Below, in pieces: positions 3,163-13,972 of a DNA stretch of 20,038 nucleotides. How positions within the stretch are numbered: the first letter of the stretch is position 1; each line of letters begins with the position of its first letter. Source of the stretch: a virus. Below the pieces are notes generated by a model. That model did not search any database. It saw nothing but the letters and a program-made list of their open reading frames with translations, and was not told where the DNA came from. A program made the translations under genes and the position numbers. The stretch lies in UHGV virus genome UHGV-1340863. One strand, given 5' to 3'.

Positions 3163-4305
3163 ATGAAAATTTTTCTTGCTCATGCAAAAGAAGATGAAAC
3201 GATAACTGAAGAAATCTATGAAAGGCTAAAAAGTGGAGGATATTCCCCTTGGATGGATGTAAAAGATATACCCGCTGGCGTAAACTGGGATTATGAAATC
3301 CAAAAAAACTTCGCTAATTCAAACTTGATAATCCTTATCCTTAGCAAAGTGAGCACTCAGAAAAATGGTTATATTCGCCGCGAAATAAATGACGCCATTG
3401 ATAAACTAAAGTATTACAAACCAGATGATGTGTTCGTGATACCATTACTTATTGATGATTGCGAAGTACCCGCCTACATATCAAGCAAGCTCCAATTCAT
3501 TGATTTTAAGAGAAATGATGGTTGGGACATTTTATCTAGATCTTTAAGATTAGCAGCATCGCAACAAAAACTTGAAATATCTCAAGGTATCACTTATGGG
3601 CCATTTAACTTTAGCAGCGAGGTTTTCAAGGAAGAATATAACAAGATCCCAGGGCATGAAATTGAAATAGCATATCCAAGAATTGAAAGCCATACATTAC
3701 CGAAATCAGCAAAACTCATTAGTGATTACTTTTCAGGAAAAGCGGCTTTACATATTTTTTCTGAACGCACATCACTATGGCCAGGAACACCATATTGGGA
3801 TGAAGAATATAAACACACTTACACTAGTTCCTATAATGAAAGTTATAACATCTCATACTGTAACGAAAATGTCATGAGCATCCTTCATTCCGTACATTGG
3901 TATGGTGCGGGAGCAGCACACCCTAACAGTCATTTTGAAACTAGTAATTTCGTAATAACCAAGGATGACTACGCATACAAATTTAGTTTATGGGATGTAT
4001 TTACCGAAGGGAAAGAGCAAGAAGCGATTAATAAGATAAAACAAAAAATAATCTCTGAATCAGCTCGTGAATTTTGGGAGAAAACTGGTGAAAAACCAAG
4101 TGAGGACGACATTAGTACGTTTGCAACGGGTATCATGGATAGTAACTTAGACTCGTTCACAATAAATAGTGATGGATTTAGATTCCATTTTGCACCTTAC
4201 GAAATTCATGCATATGCTTTTGGTTCTTGGGAATTCTTTATCTCATTCTTTGAAGTAATAGACTTCCTTAAAGAGGATGGAATTTACTCTCTAATAAGGA
4301 GTTAA
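3163..4305 (+). CDS. TIR-domain protein (N-terminal TIR about 135 aa plus about 245-aa C-terminal domain of unknown function); candidate anti-phage NADase-type defence protein
   Basis: 380-aa ORF with AAGGAA Shine-Dalgarno 7 nt upstream of ATG. The N-terminus MKIFLAHAKEDE...GYSPWMDVKDIPAGVNWDYEIQKNFANSNLIILILSKVSTQKNGYIRREINDAIDK...DDVFVIPLLID has the bacterial TIR pattern, with a candidate catalytic Glu near residue 74 in YIRREI. Strongly AT-rich compared with its neighbours. I cannot assign the C-terminal domain by eye. Confidence 0.75.
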   Translation: MKIFLAHAKEDETITEEIYERLKSGGYSPWMDVKDIPAGVNWDYEIQKNFANSNLIILILSKVSTQKNGYIRREINDAIDKLKYYKPDDVFVIPLLIDDCEVPAYISSKLQFIDFKRNDGWDILSRSLRLAASQQKLEISQGITYGPFNFSSEVFKEEYNKIPGHEIEIAYPRIESHTLPKSAKLISDYFSGKAALHIFSERTSLWPGTPYWDEEYKHTYTSSYNESYNISYCNENVMSILHSVHWYGAGAAHPNSHFETSNFVITKDDYAYKFSLWDVFTEGKEQEAINKIKQKIISESAREFWEKTGEKPSEDDISTFATGIMDSNLDSFTINSDGFRFHFAPYEIHAYAFGSWEFFISFFEVIDFLKEDGIYSLIRS

Positions 4306-5649: not shown

Positions 5650-6690
5650 TTAGCCAATGCGAACGGTAACAAAACGATTGATGCGGGCCGGTATTGGCTG
5701 TGGTGCTGAATGTGTCTGCACATATTCAATAGCCGGATCACCAGGCACAATATAGTTTTTCGGTGCAAGTTCGGCTTTAGTCAGCCCCATTCGGATTAGC
5801 TCCGGATCCTGAATACCGCCATAGGCGACAATCCCCTGAAGAGCCGTATTGCCAAGCACCATCAAATCAGGATCAAGGAAATGTTTTTCTGTTCCGTCCT
5901 CGTCGGTATAACGCCCGCTGTAAACAACAATCGCAACATCGCCCATATACCCTTTAAAACTCACCGAATCACCAAGGTCTTTAAGGGCCGTTTCCAGTTC
6001 GGAATTAGAACCACGACGGGTATCCAGAGCCTCTTTTATCGCTCTGAATGAACGGTATTTCTTCCATACATTACCGCCCATAATGATAATATTAGTGACG
6101 CCCTCACTAAATTCTGCGTAGCTCTCAATATCATCATTTGGATCAAAAGTTTCTTTATCCTTACCTGACCACTCAGCACCGCCAGACTGAGTGATGATAT
6201 TTTGTGGTTTAATATTCCAGTCCAGCTCATAACGTTCAATACCATCGCCCTCAATGATATTTTTCCCCGTTGTGATTGCCTGAACAGCAAGCCATTCAAT
6301 ACGTGCACGAATAGCTTTAGCTTGATTTACAATCGCCTGTTTAACTTTAATATTACGCGCCCCAAAAGCATTGTATTGCTCAGGTGATACACCAGCAGGG
6401 CGCACAGCTAACTTATTTGGATCAATGCTGCTTTTCGGCTTCATATAGCCTGGACGAATTGTTTTTGATTCGTACCCTTCGTCACGTGAAACTTTACTAC
6501 CCACCATAGGAGAACAAAACGCTGCAATTGGGATATTTGGATCGTCGATTGTATCAAGAATAATATCGCGCGATTCAAACATTACCGAGCGAGTAAAAAA
6601 CAAACTGGTAAACAACGCATTTAGTTGTTTTTGTACATCTACAGCATTAACCACCTGTACAAGCTGAGTAGGCGAATATAAATCAACCAT
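5650..6690 (-). CDS. Major capsid protein, lambda gpE-like (element-encoded, diverged paralogue of the interrupted helper E)
   Basis: Aligns with lambda E along its whole length, e.g. NIITQSGGAEWSGKDKETFDPNDDIESYAEF vs NNITQSGGTEWSKRDKSTYDPTDDIEAYALN, and FRAIKEALDTRRGSNSELETALKDLG...GDVAIVVYSG vs FKAVKEKLDTRRGSNSELETAVKDLG...GDVAIVVYSG. Start set at ATG 6688-6690 (MVDLYSPTQL..., SD AGAGG) rather than the ORF-track start at 6864; 346 aa vs 341 for E. Confidence 0.85.
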   Translation of the reverse strand: MVDLYSPTQLVQVVNAVDVQKQLNALFTSLFFTRSVMFESRDIILDTIDDPNIPIAAFCSPMVGSKVSRDEGYESKTIRPGYMKPKSSIDPNKLAVRPAGVSPEQYNAFGARNIKVKQAIVNQAKAIRARIEWLAVQAITTGKNIIEGDGIERYELDWNIKPQNIITQSGGAEWSGKDKETFDPNDDIESYAEFSEGVTNIIIMGGNVWKKYRSFRAIKEALDTRRGSNSELETALKDLGDSVSFKGYMGDVAIVVYSGRYTDEDGTEKHFLDPDLMVLGNTALQGIVAYGGIQDPELIRMGLTKAELAPKNYIVPGDPAIEYVQTHSAPQPIPARINRFVTVRIG

Positions 6691-6864
6691 ACGCATCCTC
6701 TTTGCATTCATTAAAAATAATTGTGGATATATGCTATCACCGATATTTGTCATGCGAATACATGCAACCGAGTGCAATGTTGTATAAAGTTTTGGGGTGA
6801 CAACTTCAGTGCGGAAAATTAGTGTTAATATCTTCACTCCCTTTGGTCGGGATTTATGTAGCAT

Positions 6865-7886: not shown

Positions 7887-9707
7887 TTAATTTTTGCTAT
7901 CGTCATTAGTGACCGATACACATGATGGCATCCAGTCTTCTGATTCCTCCGTCAGTGTCACGTTTGAACGCAAACCGTGCTTCGTTTTCCGTTTCATATA
8001 CTCCCTGCCATATTCCGCCATTGCCCCCGGCATATCTTTACCGAAGCGCGTCAGTGTTACAGGTTTACCAAACCCATGTGCCCTCATATAAGCCAGATAG
8101 GCATGATAGAGATACCTGCGTGGGCTGAATGGCACAATTTCAGCATTACCCACTAACAGGCCATCACACATTACCGATGCCATGAGATAGCCGCAGAAGT
8201 CCACCAGCGAATCCCCCTCTCGCTTTATCGCCAGTGCTTCTTCAGATTTCTGCTGCTCATATAACAGGCGTCTGGCTTCGTCCTGATCAGCAAACCGTGT
8301 AAGCAGATGGCGAATCACTACCGCCAGCTCACCTTCTATTTTTTCCGCCAGCATCGAATCGCGTTCGTTCTCCGGTACAACTTCCGAAAAATTGAATATC
8401 ACCCGACGACGTGAGATCCCCCCGCTGCGGTCACTGAATGACATGGCGTTATTGTTAACCGCCAGCACTACTGCCGGAATACGCGTTGAATAGGGGGCTT
8501 TGTGTTTCGGGTCAATTGCCACCTTGTCACCGCCTGTAATGGCCTTAATCCCTGCCCCATCACCAGCGTAGCGGGTCATATCCGGCATGATAATCAGCGA
8601 AAAGCCAACCACTAACGCACGTTCCCTTGCATCTTCCAGCGCCTTCATGCTTGCTGATACTGTATTAGCCTTACCCGCCAGCATGGTGCAAATCTCCGCC
8701 ATCACACTTTTACCACTTCCCCCCGGCCCTGTTACCTCAATGAATAACTGCCAGTCGTACCGGTTCGCCAGCACCATGAATAATGCCGCCAGTACGCGAT
8801 CTGCCTTGCGGTCATTCTCAGCCACCGAACGGCGCAACCACTTCCAGAAATTCGGCGCATGTGTTGCCAGCGTTTCCCCCTCTGCTGGTGGGCTGAAAGG
8901 TAATTCACTGGCAATTAACAACCAGTCGTTTTTGTTATGCTCCCGAAAGTTACCAGTTCTGGTATCAAATACCCCGTTACTGAATCCAATCAGGTTACGG
9001 GCTGTATTCCCCATTACAGGCAAACTTAACTTCATGGTATCTACCGCCGATTTAATAGCGTTCTGCGAATAGCTGATCTCCGCATCAATGAAAATCTGCG
9101 CCATAGCACGCTGTAACTCTTTATCCTGAACCGGCTCCCATACAACGCCGTTGTAATGATGAACGGTGTCAGAGTCGGCATTGATTGCCAGTTCGCCGCC
9201 GTAATGTGCAAGGAGAACTTCACCGCGCTGGCTGGCCCCCATCTGATTCAACGCCAAAGATGAAGCACGCTCGTCATTTTTGCGCTCAGCCTTCTTAACT
9301 GGCAGTTCAATCACCAGACTTTCCCCATGCTCCGCTTCAGCTTTTAGGCCGACAAGGCGCGGAGTCCAGTCTTCAGGCTCTCGATCAACAAAGCTACGGT
9401 AACAACGTGCTTCCTTTACGCCTGCAATAGCAAGTAATGTCGCAACCTTCGTCAGACTTTTCTCTGCAATCTTTCCGGCACGATAAACACGCACATAATG
9501 ACGGCCTTCATCGATAATTTGCATATCATCCAGGTTTTCCAGTTGTTCCGTACCCAGAATGACTGGTGGTGTATCATCTGCTGCAATATGCTTACCTGCC
9601 CATTCATTCCATTCTTTTGCATGGCTCCAGGCATCACTGCCAGCAAAAATGATGACTTCCGTCATTTTGTCGCGCGGTTGGTATTTTAAGTTCGGAGCAC
9701 GTTTCAT
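7887..9707 (-). CDS. Replication initiator: D5/P4-alpha-type SF3 helicase-primase (PICI Pri-Rep-like)
   Basis: 606 aa; Walker A motif VTGPGGSGKS with a downstream hydrophobic stretch ending in acidic residues (LIIMPDM); overall resemblance to the C-terminal NTPase of phage/plasmid primases. GGAGGT SD; ATGA overlap with the upstream small ORF; iterons directly downstream. Confidence 0.75.
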   Translation of the reverse strand: MKRAPNLKYQPRDKMTEVIIFAGSDAWSHAKEWNEWAGKHIAADDTPPVILGTEQLENLDDMQIIDEGRHYVRVYRAGKIAEKSLTKVATLLAIAGVKEARCYRSFVDREPEDWTPRLVGLKAEAEHGESLVIELPVKKAERKNDERASSLALNQMGASQRGEVLLAHYGGELAINADSDTVHHYNGVVWEPVQDKELQRAMAQIFIDAEISYSQNAIKSAVDTMKLSLPVMGNTARNLIGFSNGVFDTRTGNFREHNKNDWLLIASELPFSPPAEGETLATHAPNFWKWLRRSVAENDRKADRVLAALFMVLANRYDWQLFIEVTGPGGSGKSVMAEICTMLAGKANTVSASMKALEDARERALVVGFSLIIMPDMTRYAGDGAGIKAITGGDKVAIDPKHKAPYSTRIPAVVLAVNNNAMSFSDRSGGISRRRVIFNFSEVVPENERDSMLAEKIEGELAVVIRHLLTRFADQDEARRLLYEQQKSEEALAIKREGDSLVDFCGYLMASVMCDGLLVGNAEIVPFSPRRYLYHAYLAYMRAHGFGKPVTLTRFGKDMPGAMAEYGREYMKRKTKHGLRSNVTLTEESEDWMPSCVSVTNDDSKN

Positions 9708-9994: not shown

Positions 9995-10219
9995 TTATTC
10001 TCCGGTATAGCTCTGGTCGTGTATTTTTATAGCTTCATCCAGCTCTTTGATGACAGGATCAAGTAACGTAATTAACGCTCCAGCTAAATTAGCATCCCGT
10101 TCATCGTGTTCCGCATTTGTTGTCCCATCAAGCCAGGTTGATAAGATTTCTCGCATATTTTTGCCACAAACGAGCGCGTTTTCAGCATGTGTCAGCACTT
10201 TAAAATAAAGATCATTCAT
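9995..10219 (-). CDS. Hypothetical protein (74 aa), replication operon
   Basis: Strong AGGAGGTG SD upstream of ATG at 10217-10219; overlaps the end of the upstream ORF by 8 nt. Confidence 0.5.
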   Translation of the reverse strand: MNDLYFKVLTHAENALVCGKNMREILSTWLDGTTNAEHDERDANLAGALITLLDPVIKELDEAIKIHDQSYTGE

Positions 10220-10577
10220 GGCACACCTCCTGACGAATACGGGCGGCGAATATCATCACGTAGCCAGTTGGGAATTGCTGGCGGGCTTCCTGTTCGCTGG
10301 CGGCCTCGATGTGTATTACGCGTGGTTGTGCGGTGCTCAGGGCGATAAAACGCCAGATGAAATTGTTTTCGCATTTCTGAATAAACAGCGTGTTTTCTTC
10401 ACGCCCTTTCCAGAAAGCCGCAGTATAGCCCATCTCCTTAACCATCTTGCGGGCATCAACCAGCGTGTCAGCGGCAACATGTACCGTAGTTGCTCCATCT
10501 GCCATGCGGTCGTGGTGTAGTGCCAGAAAGGTGTATATAAATTTAGGGTGAGTTTGGGTATGCTGTGTTCCAGCCAT
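10212..10577 (-). CDS. Hypothetical protein (121 aa), first gene of the leftward replication operon
   Basis: C-terminal 121 codons of the 304-aa track ORF, starting at ATG 10575-10577 (MAGTQHTQTH...) with a GAGGT SD. The long N-terminal extension in the track overlaps the operator region and the divergent gene and is rejected. Confidence 0.5.
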   Translation of the reverse strand: MAGTQHTQTHPKFIYTFLALHHDRMADGATTVHVAADTLVDARKMVKEMGYTAAFWKGREENTLFIQKCENNFIWRFIALSTAQPRVIHIEAASEQEARQQFPTGYVMIFAARIRQEVCHE

Positions 10578-10664
10578 AATCGTTACCTCGTTTAACGGTT
10601 TGGTTAGAAGCCCGGTTAGTGTTCGCGCACTGCCGGGTTTCGTCGTTTTTATGAATCGATCATT

Positions 10665-10766
10665 GTGAGATACATAGCGACCATGATGTGAGATATACAT
10701 TATATTGTGGTGATATACATTGCAAGTGTTTTTATATCTCACTTTTGTGTATAGTGATATACACAT
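10665..10766. promoter_or_regulatory. Operator-like repeat cluster (GTGAGATA(TA)CAT x5, one inverted) in a divergent promoter region
   Basis: gtgagatacat 10665-10675, gtgagatatacat 10688-10700, gtgatatacat 10710-10720, inverted tatatctcac 10733-10742, gtgatatacacat 10754-10766; lies between the divergent genes starting at 10577 (-) and 10786 (+). Confidence 0.6.
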
Positions 10767-10785
10767 AACAAATTGGTGATTAACT

Positions 10786-11088
10786 ATGTCTGTATACAAA
10801 AATGCAAAATCGCAAATGACAACGATCAGGGTTCCCCACGATGTTATGGAGGGCATGGAATCCGTAAAACTGGACGGCGAAAGCAACGCCGGATTCATAG
10901 TAACCGCCATGCGCGGTGAGATCGCCCGCCGCCAGGCAGAAGGAAGCGGAGAAAATCCCCTCGTGTCTTCACTGGATGCCTTAGCTAAGGTCGAACAAAT
11001 CGGCATCAAGGCAGCGGAGGAAATCGGGCAACTCGTAGCCGTCGCTCGTGAAGAACTCCAGCGGCGTAAAGCCAAAGAATCTGAATAA
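10786..11088 (+). CDS. Putative small DNA-binding regulator (possible ribbon-helix-helix fold), divergent from the replication operon
   Basis: 100-aa ORF with GGTGA SD; N-terminal TTIRVPHDVMEGMESV resembles an RHH beta-strand/helix start. Position next to the operator repeats fits a repressor or activator role. Fold assignment is a guess. Confidence 0.45.
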   Translation: MSVYKNAKSQMTTIRVPHDVMEGMESVKLDGESNAGFIVTAMRGEIARRQAEGSGENPLVSSLDALAKVEQIGIKAAEEIGQLVAVAREELQRRKAKESE

Positions 11089-11097
11089 TTACTATCA

Positions 11098-11124
11098 GCG
11101 CCGTGATGTGAGTAACTACGGCGC
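11098..11124 (+). terminator. Hairpin downstream of the regulator gene
   Basis: gcgccgt (11098-11104) / acggcgc (11118-11124) stem with 13-nt loop, 10 nt after the stop codon; the downstream tail is only moderately T-rich. Confidence 0.35.
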
Positions 11125-11438
11125 ATTGCTATGTAAATACTGGCAATAAACAGAAAAGGTAGTTCTACTCCGAATAATTTTATCTGACACTACTCCTGAA
11201 CTAACATGCGCTTATCTTACAGGATATAAATATAGATCCATAAAATCACGATTAAATAAAGTCGCTCCAAACATAAACCACACCCAACGCTTAACAAGAT
11301 AGCAACAAACAGATAAATAACTTGCAGAAATATTTATCGCAAGGATTATCATTATTAATTACAAATCACTTTACCAAGTCATTCCCCTCTCTTATCATAA
11401 AGAGAAAGTAATAAATAAGTTAAGGGAGTTAGAATACT

Positions 11439-11975
11439 ATGAATCTAAAAAAAATAGCCACAAACATAAAAAACAAGATAATAGAAACATTCAATAAACT
11501 TATATTAGAGGCATCTAAAACCCCCACACAAGATGAAATTAAAATACTTGAGAGAAGAAGTAAAAAGTTTAATTACTCCTTTTTCTCATACGCAGTCACA
11601 GGAGCCATAATGGTTTTTTGCTCTCAACCATTAATAAAATACGCAAACCCAATGCTTATTTTATTGAGTGGTCTGTTACTGTCTATCATCATTATCCTTC
11701 TCAGAATGATTTATATTTCACAAGCGAATGCATCATGGACAACCAAAAAACGTTCACATGTACTAGTTCATTTTCTTTCTGCATGTTTCATAGCGTCAAC
11801 ATTGACGTTGTTATATCAGGCTTACGATAATAACATCACACACAAATTGTACTGTAAAAATATACAACAACTTATTGAAAAAAGGATAGAAACAGAAAAA
11901 AATATCAGCATATTCAGTGGGATGCAATGCACCCCGGCATATGATTACTCTTTATTTGGATTTAATCTCTTATAA
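11439..11975 (+). CDS. AT-rich multi-pass membrane protein (178 aa), function unknown; cargo gene candidate
   Basis: Three hydrophobic helices (AVTGAIMVFCSQPLI, MLILLSGLLLSIIIILLRMIYI, VLVHFLSACFIASTLTLLYQAY); GGGAG SD upstream; strongly AT-rich island (about 11100-12040) flanked by GC-richer element genes. Confidence 0.6.
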   Translation: MNLKKIATNIKNKIIETFNKLILEASKTPTQDEIKILERRSKKFNYSFFSYAVTGAIMVFCSQPLIKYANPMLILLSGLLLSIIIILLRMIYISQANASWTTKKRSHVLVHFLSACFIASTLTLLYQAYDNNITHKLYCKNIQQLIEKRIETEKNISIFSGMQCTPAYDYSLFGFNLL

Positions 11976-12044
11976 AGAATGTTATTACTGATTTGAGTGC
12001 AAATTCTCAAATCAGTAATTCATAATATTTTATTCTGAGATAAT

Positions 12045-12272
12045 TTAAACTACCCACTCACCTCGAATCCATGCCTGCACTTCTGAAAGACGATATGCAA
12101 CAGCAGTGGAGCCAATCTTGATCCGCTTAGGAAATTTCCCTTCCTTCTCCAGCTTCCAGCGTGTGCTGTTCGCAAGAGTGGTTAGCTCCCGACATTCTTT
12201 CTCACGGATCATACGATCGATGTTAGGAATGTACTCCAGACCCTTTTTATCAACAATCGCCATTTTTTTCAT
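12045..12272 (-). CDS. AlpA-family HTH protein (excisionase / transcriptional activator candidate)
   Basis: 75 aa; LTTLANSTRWKLEKEGKFPKRIKIGSTAVAYRLSEVQAWIRGE matches the AlpA/Xis HTH pattern (..EGKFPKP.K.G.R...W...E.Q.WI); directly downstream of int. Confidence 0.75.
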   Translation of the reverse strand: MKKMAIVDKKGLEYIPNIDRMIREKECRELTTLANSTRWKLEKEGKFPKRIKIGSTAVAYRLSEVQAWIRGEWVV

Positions 12273-12273
12273 G

Positions 12274-13509
12274 TTAACCAGCCTTTTGTTTGAGGATTAT
12301 CACTTTTGAATCAGCACCTGCGATGCTATTGAGATATGTAGTCCAGAGTTCCAGAGCATCCAGTTTTTTAGCCATAAACTTACTCCGGTTGTAAACACCT
12401 GCCACGCCAGGTAGCGCATGGCCTAACAGTTGTTCTACTACATAAAATTCAACACCGAGATCACTTAGATGAGTAGATAGCGTTCTTCTAAGGTCGTGTA
12501 GTGACCATTGTTTTTCATGGCCCAAACGTTTACCGATTTTCCCCCCAATCTTGCTTACGCTTTCTCTAATTCGCAGACTTCCCAGCACATAACCAGTATG
12601 TTTTGTCTCTTCGTGAACATCCGTTACCCACTGTCGTAGAATTTCAGGTACTGGTCTGACGATTTCAACACCAGTTTTTGAGTGATCTTTTGGTACAGTC
12701 CAAACCCAACTTTCGAGATCCCATTCGCTCCATTCTGATAATCGGGCTTCACTCATTCGACATCCAAATACTGTACAAAGTACAAACATTTTTCGCGTGT
12801 ATTCAGACATTAGTTTTAAATCAGGCTCGACAAAAATTGCTTTCCAGAGCTGGCCCAGCTCGGCTTCATCCAGAACCCGATCCCGCTTACCTGCAATCTG
12901 CCCCACATCACTCATGCGCAAATCCTTTAAAGCATCACACGTCGCGTACTGGCGTACCCGACAAAAACGAAGAGCTAATTTAGTGTCAGAAAAAACATAC
13001 GCCGCCATAACTGGTGCATTACGTTTAATTCGGTCAAAACAGTCCAGCCATTCATATAGGTGAGTGTCATTTACAGGCAAATGACCGATATAGGGAAAAA
13101 TATGCTTTCGAAATCTGCCAAGCGTTACAGCATGAGTTTTACGACGCACCTTACAGTAATTTTCATACCAGTAATTTAGTGCATCCTCCACTGTGACCGG
13201 CTTTAAGCGTTCTTCAGCCTGAATCTTAATCTGGATACGCGGATCACGTTTGTCAGCCAACCAACCACGGCACTCGTCGCGCTTTTCCCTTGCCTGTTTG
13301 AGTGACATATCAGGATATTTACCCAACGTTAGCCAGACCGGAGCAGCCCGGCCACCTGCTAACCTGTAGAAGAAAACAAAGCTCACAGCCCCCTTGGTAC
13401 TCACACGAATAGAAAGCCCCTTTCCATCAGCAATGGTGATCTGCTTTTCTCTGGGTTTCCCCAGATATCCTTTAAGTGCTTTGTCGCTCAGTTTGTTCTC
13501 GCCAGCCAT
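12274..13509 (-). CDS. int: Tyrosine site-specific integrase (P4-type, N-terminal arm-binding domain)
   Basis: 411 aa from ATG 13507-13509 (MAGENKLSDK...); C-terminal catalytic region with HDLRRT and LLGH motifs plus a downstream Tyr; terminal gene of the element, beside the right junction. Confidence 0.88.
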   Translation of the reverse strand: MAGENKLSDKALKGYLGKPREKQITIADGKGLSIRVSTKGAVSFVFFYRLAGGRAAPVWLTLGKYPDMSLKQAREKRDECRGWLADKRDPRIQIKIQAEERLKPVTVEDALNYWYENYCKVRRKTHAVTLGRFRKHIFPYIGHLPVNDTHLYEWLDCFDRIKRNAPVMAAYVFSDTKLALRFCRVRQYATCDALKDLRMSDVGQIAGKRDRVLDEAELGQLWKAIFVEPDLKLMSEYTRKMFVLCTVFGCRMSEARLSEWSEWDLESWVWTVPKDHSKTGVEIVRPVPEILRQWVTDVHEETKHTGYVLGSLRIRESVSKIGGKIGKRLGHEKQWSLHDLRRTLSTHLSDLGVEFYVVEQLLGHALPGVAGVYNRSKFMAKKLDALELWTTYLNSIAGADSKVIILKQKAG

Positions 13510-13524
13510 TTTAAGCCCCAAAAA

Positions 13525-13561
13525 GCAATACAAGCTGCAATACAGAGATGATTGCAACACA
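13525..13561 (+). repeat. Direct repeats GCAATACA x2 plus GCAACACA (candidate integrase arm-type sites, attR side / int leader)
   Basis: gcaataca at 13525-13532 and 13537-13544, gcaacaca at 13554-13561; same motif and orientation as 3032-3052 at the opposite end. Confidence 0.5.
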
Positions 13562-13641
13562 CAGATAACGAGGAAAATCCAGTGAAAGCGCCAGATAGAC
13601 TTATTCTTTATTATCAAAAGATTAAGTGTAAAAACCAGCAA

Positions 13642-13917
13642 CTACACGAAAGCCTCAGAAAGCCATGCTAAGTGCTTCGGCTTGACATATCCCGGCGTAA
13701 ATTCAGAGGTGGAGCCGCCACGGGAACGGATAACCTCACCGGAAACAATCGGCGAAACGTACAGCGCCATGTTTACCAGTCCCGGAATTTGTGAGAGATA
13801 GACTTTCTCCGTGGTGAAGGGATAGCTCTCACGGAAAAAGAGACGCAGAAACAGCGGATCAAACTTAAATTTCTGCTCATTTGCCGCCAGCAGCTGGGCG
13901 GTTGTGTACATCGACAT
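13642..13917 (-). pseudogene. E: Major capsid protein E, N-terminal 82 codons fused to 9 element-derived codons and a stop
   Basis: MSMYTTAQLLAANEQKFKFDPLFLRLFFRESYPFTTEKVYLSQIPGLVNMALYVSPIVSGEVIRSRGGSTSEFTPGYVKPKH matches lambda E 1-82, then LAWLSEAFV-stop encoded by element sequence (13642-13671). Confidence 0.9.
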
Positions 13918-13972
13918 AAAAAAATCCCGTAAAAAAAGCCGCACAGGCGGCCTTTAGTGATGAAGGGTAAAG

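Follow-up and report, generated by a model that had tools for sequence, protein, structure and literature searches.

An AT-rich cargo islet in a helper-embedded satellite of an Escherichia coli prophage encodes a predicted three-helix membrane protein that may take part in phage exclusion

We analysed a 20,038-nucleotide stretch of viral DNA (UHGV virus genome UHGV-1340863; hereafter, the window), which is part of a lambdoid prophage of Escherichia coli and contains a satellite, a phage-inducible chromosomal island (PICI), embedded in this helper prophage. The subject of this report is an AT-rich islet of the satellite and the open reading frame (ORF) in it, ORF178 (11439..11975, + strand), which starts with ATG and encodes 178 amino acids. 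The analysis indicated that ORF178 is a genuine gene, that it is accessory cargo rather than a core gene of the satellite, and that it belongs to a small family without annotation. Its product is predicted to be an inner-membrane protein of ca. 20 kDa with three transmembrane helices. By analogy with known exclusion proteins, it is tentatively proposed that ORF178 would act as a stand-alone factor at the envelope to exclude incoming phages, and we put the probability of this reading at roughly 0.3 to 0.4.

ORF178 is taken as a real gene since the ratio of non-synonymous to synonymous substitution rates (dN/dS) was 0.17 and since homologues at only 25-36% identity kept its conserved residues and three hydrophobic segments. 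The ratio was obtained from two other E. coli alleles, in which the reading frame was preserved, and ranged from 0.07 to 0.2 in the N- and C-terminal thirds. By our own arithmetic, an open frame of 178 codons would arise by chance with a probability of ca. 5e-7 at this composition, at which ca. 7.8% of random codons are stops. Direct reading of the sequence located a Shine-Dalgarno sequence, AAGGGAG (11422..11428, +), 10 nt upstream of the ATG, and the ribosome-binding site that an earlier note, prepared from the letters of this DNA alone, had ascribed to the 178-amino-acid ORF was thus found.

The islet (11131..12045) has a G+C (GC) content of 30.6% and occupies the accessory slot next to the integrase gene (int) and alpA; its limits were set from homology breakpoints. 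On the left, more distant PICIs with the same icd-ylcI backbone were homologous up to 11127-11130, just past a hairpin. On the right, homology with sister elements resumed at 12040-12053, at the stop codon of alpA. The GC content was 31.3% in ORF178 and 31.6% in 11100-12040, as against 43% in the satellite and 49% in the whole window. The earlier note had described a compositionally foreign, AT-rich island at 11100-12040, and the breakpoints prove these coordinates to be essentially exact. It had also placed the gene between a regulator and the int-alpA pair. The position was right; the neighbour is a YlcI/YnfO-family gene (ylcI), for which no regulatory role has been established. The exchanged block began further left in some sister elements, at ca. 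10631 or ca. 10368, and took in the ylcI allele.

The occupancy of the slot was examined in 5426 complete E. coli genomes. The int-alpA type of the window was present in 177 of them, and the islet with ORF178 was found in 68, each time beside that int-alpA pair; in one genome, ORF178 was interrupted by IS5. The 109 remaining elements with the same integrase type lacked ORF178 and had other genes in its place. Sister elements whose flanks were 95-99% identical differed in the content of the slot: a CAP12/Pycsar-type TIR protein (PADLOC PDC-S35, E = 7e-67), a putAbiC protein (Pfam putAbiC, E = 2.8e-16), or a SWIM gene together with either a DUF2971 gene or a hypothetical gene. More distant PICIs carried an antirepressor, small ORFs or nothing at this position. 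The slot thus varies between near-identical elements and its other occupants are recognisable defence genes, and it is a genuine cargo hotspot with defence-type occupants. These observations are in line with two assumptions of the earlier note, namely that the gene is cargo and not a conserved core gene, and that it sits at a position typical of defence genes. The slot at the opposite (3') end of the satellite was also variable. It held a TIR-DUF3298 gene, a DUF262 and HEPN pair similar to NsnA/PD-T4-2 (E = 2e-59), an AbiJ-like gene (E = 2e-21), DUF2971 or a gene for a 438-amino-acid hypothetical protein. Immune systems of PICIs are reported to sit at the 5' and 3' ends of the elements (PMC11364771).

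When 1.84 billion representative proteins were searched exhaustively with HMMER, just 11 matches to ORF178 were obtained; its exact sequence was present on 508 contigs. Family members have 148-178 amino acids, and the distant ones, which have 148-175 amino acids and are 25-36% identical to ORF178 as mentioned above, kept residues P71, G78, C139, Q143, F159 and C164. The family alignment showed a motif, QPLxKYANP, between the first and second hydrophobic segments, an invariant glycine within the second, and a C-terminal signature, H..YC..LQ...EKN..IF..M.C, with two invariant cysteines (C139 and C164).

A profile scan of genome contigs with one of the family alignments (A2) detected only three loci. 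A Kosakonia helper-embedded PICI (L005, 8001-8498) had a family member in the same slot; its integrase and AlpA were 88-92% identical to those of the window, as against 34% for the membrane protein. Two related Enterobacter-type prophages (L015, 8001-8489; L028, 7001-7486) carried the members P0020 and P0016, which were inserted in opposite orientation between a Mu-F-like gene and head genes; these two members were 34% identical to each other and the flanking genes 55-93%. Hence, in syntenic slots of two unrelated element types, the family gene was 33-34% identical where backbone genes were 55-93% identical; either the family gene evolves fast or diverged homologous cassettes replace each other. 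In a Pseudomonas-like defence island (L030, 5303-7447), the member P0017 lay between the gene of a retron type XI reverse transcriptase (RT)-protease and a DUF4238 gene, with a SoFic-like gene near. It started 49 bp downstream of the RT-protease gene in the same orientation, and both had a GC content of 38.7% in a genome of 56-63%. Further members adjoin an integrase fragment and umuDC, lie close to the fragment of a satellite primase in Pantoea or, in Ewingella, form a lone islet.

Everywhere, the family genes were AT-rich relative to their surroundings (27-40% GC within flanks of 43-63%), and the difference from the flanks by which morons are recognised was seen here as well (31% as against 43-49%). 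An all-against-all BLAST comparison of the neighbours across the family contexts revealed no conserved partner gene, and the description of ORF178 as a stand-alone gene in the earlier note therefore stands. Taken together, these features suggest that the family moves among satellites, prophages and defence islands, in Enterobacterales and in one Pseudomonas-like genome, as an AT-rich, single-gene, moron-like cassette.

None of the family and fold searches connected ORF178 with a known protein. With ORF178 and all 13 aligned family members as queries, searches of Pfam, PHROGs, NCBIfam and PADLOC gave no more than hydrophobic noise below threshold, cola_mem at 14 bits being an example. The sole Pfam match, DUF443 (18.7 bits, E = 0.0016), was under the gathering threshold of 26.2 and was rejected as compositional, since it was scored by four near-identical E. 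coli sequences and by none of the distant homologues. In PADLOC-DB v2, ORF178 matched 0 families at E ≤ 1, and six distant homologues matched 0 families at E ≤ 0.1. The best match in a profile search of PDB sequences had an E value of 1, and a literature search for the RefSeq protein accessions of ORF178 found no mention of them.

Kyte-Doolittle analysis of ORF178 showed three hydrophobic segments: a weak one at residues 45-62, a strong one at 70-92 and one of intermediate strength at 107-126. They comprise ca. 34% of the residues. The earlier note had called the product a mostly transmembrane protein with several membrane-spanning segments; the segments are there, and 'mostly' was an overstatement. 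The N-terminus is basic and 44 amino acids long, and the C-terminal tail has 52 amino acids. Throughout the family, the loop that joins helices 2 and 3 carries a net positive charge, with no acidic residues save one in one member, and every member has the cysteine pair in a neutral to acidic C-terminal tail. By the positive-inside rule, as applied to the basic N-terminus, the positive second loop and the neutral-to-acidic tail, we infer an N-in/C-out topology in which the QPLxKYANP loop and the C-terminal tail would be periplasmic and C139 and C164 would form a disulfide. An AlphaFold2 model built from a 13-sequence alignment was all-helical, with a mean predicted local distance difference test score (pLDDT) of 82.7; helix 3 and its helical continuation were modelled at a confidence above 90.

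A mosaic patch was observed in one E. coli allele (L018, 10001-10537). Codons 81-120 (11679-11798 in the window), which run from the end of helix 2 through the cytoplasmic loop into the first part of helix 3, differed with a synonymous rate (dS) of 0.36 and a non-synonymous rate (dN) of 0.41, and the remainder of the gene was nearly identical. Since the patch has diverged at synonymous as well as non-synonymous sites, it suggests recombination between diverged alleles, with a more distant one as the source.

On the basis of these features, the following mode of action can be envisaged for ORF178. The gene would be expressed from the resident, uninduced element, which is probable since it is transcribed in the direction opposite to the late genes of both satellite and helper. 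The product would be inserted in the inner membrane by three transmembrane helices, with the basic, 44-residue N-terminal helix in the cytoplasm. The short conserved QPLxKYANP loop would face outward, and the last ca. 50 residues would form a helical hairpin in the periplasm, stapled by the disulfide. This periplasm-facing surface may then block the entry of phage genomes at the inner membrane, in a manner analogous to that of P22 SieA, T4 Imm and HK97 gp15. Exclusion was preferred over abortive infection since ORF178 is a single gene, has no cytoplasmic sensor or enzymatic domain, and has its most conserved features in parts predicted to be periplasmic. The earlier note had speculated on both mechanisms, for which genomic location and architecture would be the grounds. 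As a tentative extension, ORF178 might found a previously unrecognised family of single-gene anti-phage factors acting at the envelope, carried to protect the composite of helper and satellite. The lone retron type XI neighbour prompted a more speculative variant, in which various sensors would be able to recruit the family as a membrane effector.

Several observations weigh against exclusion. The E. coli alleles are nearly invariant in the parts predicted to be periplasmic, and where they diverge, the patch covers the cytoplasmic loop and the transmembrane helix ends; variation would be expected in a surface that competes with phage proteins in an arms race. For the predicted topology and disulfide, the positive-inside rule is the basis. 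No homology link to an exclusion or defence protein emerged from PADLOC, PHROGs, Pfam or NCBIfam, and a direct comparison of a family alignment (A1) with P22 SieA by hhalign gave a probability of 0.2% (E = 0.31) over 10 columns. Foldseek with the AlphaFold2 model returned generic helical hairpins, with best E values of 0.46 (BFVD) and 1.5 (PDB). A tblastn search of 50,697 sequenced phage isolate genomes with ORF178 and P0020 gave no match. The Ewingella member lies in an ordinary-looking chromosomal neighbourhood. Finally, the evidence for a promoter is weak: the candidate sigma-70 promoter found by a consensus scan (TTTACC, 17-nt spacer, TATCAT; 11370..11398, +) matches the consensus at 9 of 12 positions, and the AT-rich stretch contained 10 promoter-like sites where 6.5 ± 2.5 were expected from shuffled sequence, which is not a significant enrichment.

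The most serious alternative, which we consider unlikely, is that ORF178 encodes an abortive-infection effector or toxin of the membrane. Such a protein would form a pore or cause depolarisation on infection, and it would either sense infection itself through the cytoplasmic N-terminal helix or depend on an unlinked sensor. CBASS, retron and Rex-type systems commonly employ small effectors with several transmembrane helices, and the putAbiC and CAP12/Pycsar-type TIR genes that occupy the same slot in sister elements fit such a role, as does the placement of P0017 close behind an RT-protease gene of equal GC content. However, no sensor or partner gene was conserved in any context, and the most conserved features of ORF178 are predicted to be on the periplasmic rather than the cytoplasmic side. 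The retron link itself did not hold up: the family was considered as a retron type XI accessory gene and rejected, as the adjacency occurred once (L030) and three related RT-protease genes (46-81% identity) had no family member nearby. The family is also tiny compared with the 4463 homologues of the RT-protease at E ≤ 1e-30.

ORF178 could instead be a moron unrelated to phages that contributes to host fitness or lysogenic conversion, for example to envelope stress tolerance, serum resistance or colonisation. The helper prophage already bears conversion genes of the iss/bor type, many carriers are avian or extra-intestinal isolates, and the Ewingella member, as a lone chromosomal islet, fits this role. 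However, the host bias of the carriers is accounted for by the iss-bearing helper prophage together with clonal sampling, the alternative occupants of the slot are defence-type and not virulence genes, and the Pfam and NCBIfam scans detected no similarity to known envelope or virulence families. Conversion therefore appears rather doubtful.

A role at the membrane in the life cycle of the satellite, such as the timing of lysis in the manner of a holin or antiholin, or interference with the helper, was judged improbable. Class I holins likewise have three transmembrane helices, the satellite depends on helper lysis, and one family member gave a single match to a PHROG holin/antiholin family at noise level (E = 0.029). 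However, ORF178 is missing from the 109 elements mentioned above, where other genes replace it, and the family also occurs outside satellites. Moreover, ORF178 lies on the strand opposite to the late transcription of satellite and helper (PMC10111431), and its length of 178 amino acids, predicted N-in/C-out topology and cysteine pair are unlike those of lambda S-type holins.

It is highly improbable that ORF178 is the toxin of a toxin-antitoxin pair that stabilises the satellite together with the upstream YlcI/YnfO protein. The two genes are adjacent and co-oriented, some exchanges involve the ylcI allele together with the cargo, and the ylcI copy of one sister element is annotated as a 'HicB family antitoxin'. 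However, a 350-bp gap containing the hairpin separates the two genes, and the other family members have no ylcI neighbour. In other PICIs, ylcI was found with unrelated cargo or with none; it belongs to the backbone of many E. coli PICIs and is not a dedicated partner of ORF178.

The suggestion of the earlier note that ORF178 encodes a membrane effector acting in trans with the TIR-DUF3298 protein is scarcely credible: both genes are AT-rich cargo of one element in the window and in ca. 12 complete genomes, but 56 of the 68 ORF178 carriers had no TIR gene, 4 of the ca. 16 TIR carriers had no ORF178, the two slots assort independently, and the distant family members have no TIR neighbour. These counts were obtained with a concatenated query, which hit 84 places in 72 genomes. 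In the loci inspected, ORF178 was also paired with the DUF262 and HEPN genes or with the 438-amino-acid hypothetical gene, and the TIR gene with SWIM and DUF2971 genes. With so little co-carriage and such free re-assortment of the two slots, the partnership is not supported. The TIR gene (3163..4305, +), which occupies the 3'-end cargo slot, encodes an N-terminal TIR_2 domain (Pfam, E = 2.8e-21) and a C-terminal DUF3298 domain. In PADLOC, the match to 'Aga_TIR-PNTD1-PNTD2' (E = 1.6e-17) was confined to the TIR part, and the gene is not a catalogued complete system.

The remainder of the window consists of helper and satellite genes. The helper genes comprise those for the small and large terminase subunits, portal, S49 protease, D-like decoration protein, a split lambda-E-like capsid protein, FI and tail proteins, and their assignment was backed by the RefSeq annotation of a chromosome (strain Rb-23) that is 100% identical to the window over 10000-13700. 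The satellite, of ca. 10.7 kb, interrupts the lambda-E-like major capsid gene of the helper at ca. 2950 and ca. 13665, leaving capsid gene fragments at 2138-2941 and 13642-13944; a run of 100 N at 2492-2591 masks a portion of the helper capsid fragment. Next to the right-hand fragment lies the tyrosine-type integrase gene of a helper-embedded PICI (12274..13641, -; Pfam Arm-DNA-bind_3 and Phage_integrase; 411 amino acids from the RefSeq start), followed by alpA (12045..12272, -; Pfam Phage_AlpA, E = 2.8e-15), which encodes an AlpA-family excisionase/regulator and forms the right flank of the slot. The gene upstream of ORF178 and co-oriented with it, ylcI (10786..11088, +), encodes 100 amino acids (phrog_6522, E = 1.7e-61) and takes its name from RefSeq. 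The satellite also carries an Icd-like gene (10212-10577, -; 121 amino acids in RefSeq), a D5-type primase gene (7887-9707, -; 606 amino acids, intact in the window), and genes for a single-stranded DNA-binding protein (SSB), a DUF4222 protein, its own E-like capsid and D-like decoration proteins, and a second AlpA-like protein. RefSeq annotates the satellite primase of strain Rb-23 as frameshifted (L001, 8789-10608).

The element thus has an int-alpA pair, a primase, a capsid gene of its own and an insertion within the lambda-E-like capsid gene of its helper, and it is of a kind already published, the capE site group of helper-embedded PICIs, of which Eco567.11capE is an example (PMC10111431). 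The most striking feature of the window, an entire satellite within the helper capsid gene that bears E-like and D-like genes itself, is likewise a known configuration (PMC10111431).

Two ORFs in the mechanical listing needed correction. A 304-amino-acid ORF on the minus strand (10212-11126), which runs antisense through ylcI, was rejected as an artefact of ORF listing, the RefSeq Icd-like gene covering only 10212-10577. The ORF at 5650-6864 (-) was overextended, the satellite capsid protein having 346 amino acids in RefSeq and not 404. An Rfam scan of the window gave nothing at gathering thresholds. A sub-threshold match to the SymR antitoxin RNA (10572-10644, +; 35.3 bits as against a gathering threshold of 61, E = 2e-4) overlaps the 5' end of the Icd-like gene in antisense orientation, and this RNA could be an antisense regulator of the Icd-like cell-division inhibitor.

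Several repeats lie in and around the islet. The hairpin at its left boundary, GCGCCGT(N13)ACGGCGC (11100..11126, +), stands just 3' of the ylcI stop codon, and a perfect 14-bp inverted repeat with an 8-nt loop (11984..12019), situated inside the islet between the convergent ORF178 and alpA, is a probable bidirectional terminator. A 12-nt repeat, CC(A/G)TGATGTGAG, brackets ylcI at 10681-10692 and 11101-11112. The 37-bp segment that contains the hairpin (11094-11130) occurs twice in another PICI (L025, 4797-4833 and 5475-5511), around a small cassette. The hairpin segment or the 12-nt repeat could serve as operator, terminator or cassette-boundary element.

As a recurrent hypothetical protein (68 of 5426 genomes; 508 contigs), ORF178 is a cheap candidate for a phage-challenge screen. 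If it does exclude phages, it would be a sequence-novel, single-gene addition to the short list of inner-membrane superinfection-exclusion proteins, and its conserved periplasmic loop and cysteine pair would supply a structural handle. If it has no phage phenotype, it would be another orphan membrane moron.

Among systems with which ORF178 can be compared, the entry-exclusion proteins of conjugative elements, F TraS and SXT/R391 Eex, are small polytopic inner-membrane proteins with which a resident mobile element blocks the entry of related DNA. They differ in belonging to another class of element and showed no similarity to ORF178 in the Pfam and NCBIfam scans, so that the likeness is one of analogy. 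HK97 gp15 and T4 Imm are small inner-membrane exclusion proteins encoded by phage morons (Cumby et al. 2012; PMC3594210). Like ORF178, they are small membrane proteins encoded by units of foreign composition between or against late genes, independent in transcription and putatively so in ORF178, and the family members P0020 and P0016 are likewise encoded on the other strand of a prophage head module. ORF178 is larger than these proteins, has three helices as against one or two, and lacks both a PHROG match and a homologue in phage isolates.

In size, helix number and genetic setting, the closest analogue of ORF178 is SieA of P22, an inner-membrane protein of 162-164 amino acids with three predicted transmembrane helices, which confers superinfection exclusion as a single gene (Leavitt et al. 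2024, PMC10883804). Both proteins fall in the range of ca. 160-180 amino acids and have three transmembrane helices, those of ORF178 by prediction only. Each is encoded by a single gene of a resident element that adjoins late or structural genes; sieA has a promoter of its own and ORF178 a weak candidate for one, and in each case very divergent alleles (under 30-36% identity) occur in the same slot. The two differ at the C-terminus. SieA has a conserved motif, FxRYPxEAxxFNK, that is predicted to be cytoplasmic (PMC10883804); this motif is absent from ORF178 and all aligned homologues, and the conserved C-terminal region of ORF178 is predicted to be periplasmic and has the cysteine pair.

The slot itself resembles the hotspots of P4-like satellites and those at the ends of PICIs (Fillol-Salom 2022 and Rousset 2022, as cited in PMC11364771) in being AT-rich and variable, in lying beside int/alpA, and in exchanging its content for genes that match defence families; ORF178 differs from such occupants in matching no catalogued defence system. 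Helper-embedded PICIs of the capE type were described by Tommasini, Mageeney and Williams in 2023 (PMC10111431), where the dynamic zone is presented in terms of Bro-network genes and immunity RNAs and the words 'cargo', 'membrane' and 'TIR' do not occur in the text. The C4 and isrK immunity RNAs were not found by Rfam in the dynamic zone of this window, which differs in that respect from the published description. With Eco567.11capE, the element shares the int-alpA pair, the dynamic zone, the primase and SSB genes, capsid and decoration genes of its own (E-like capsid), and the insertion in the lambda-E-like capsid gene of the helper. If the exclusion reading is true, helper-embedded PICIs would be seen to use the int-proximal dynamic zone for defence cargo, a use not discussed in that paper. 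Small-membrane-protein morons, hotspot cargo of this sort and the satellite type are thus already known, and what is new here is ORF178 itself.

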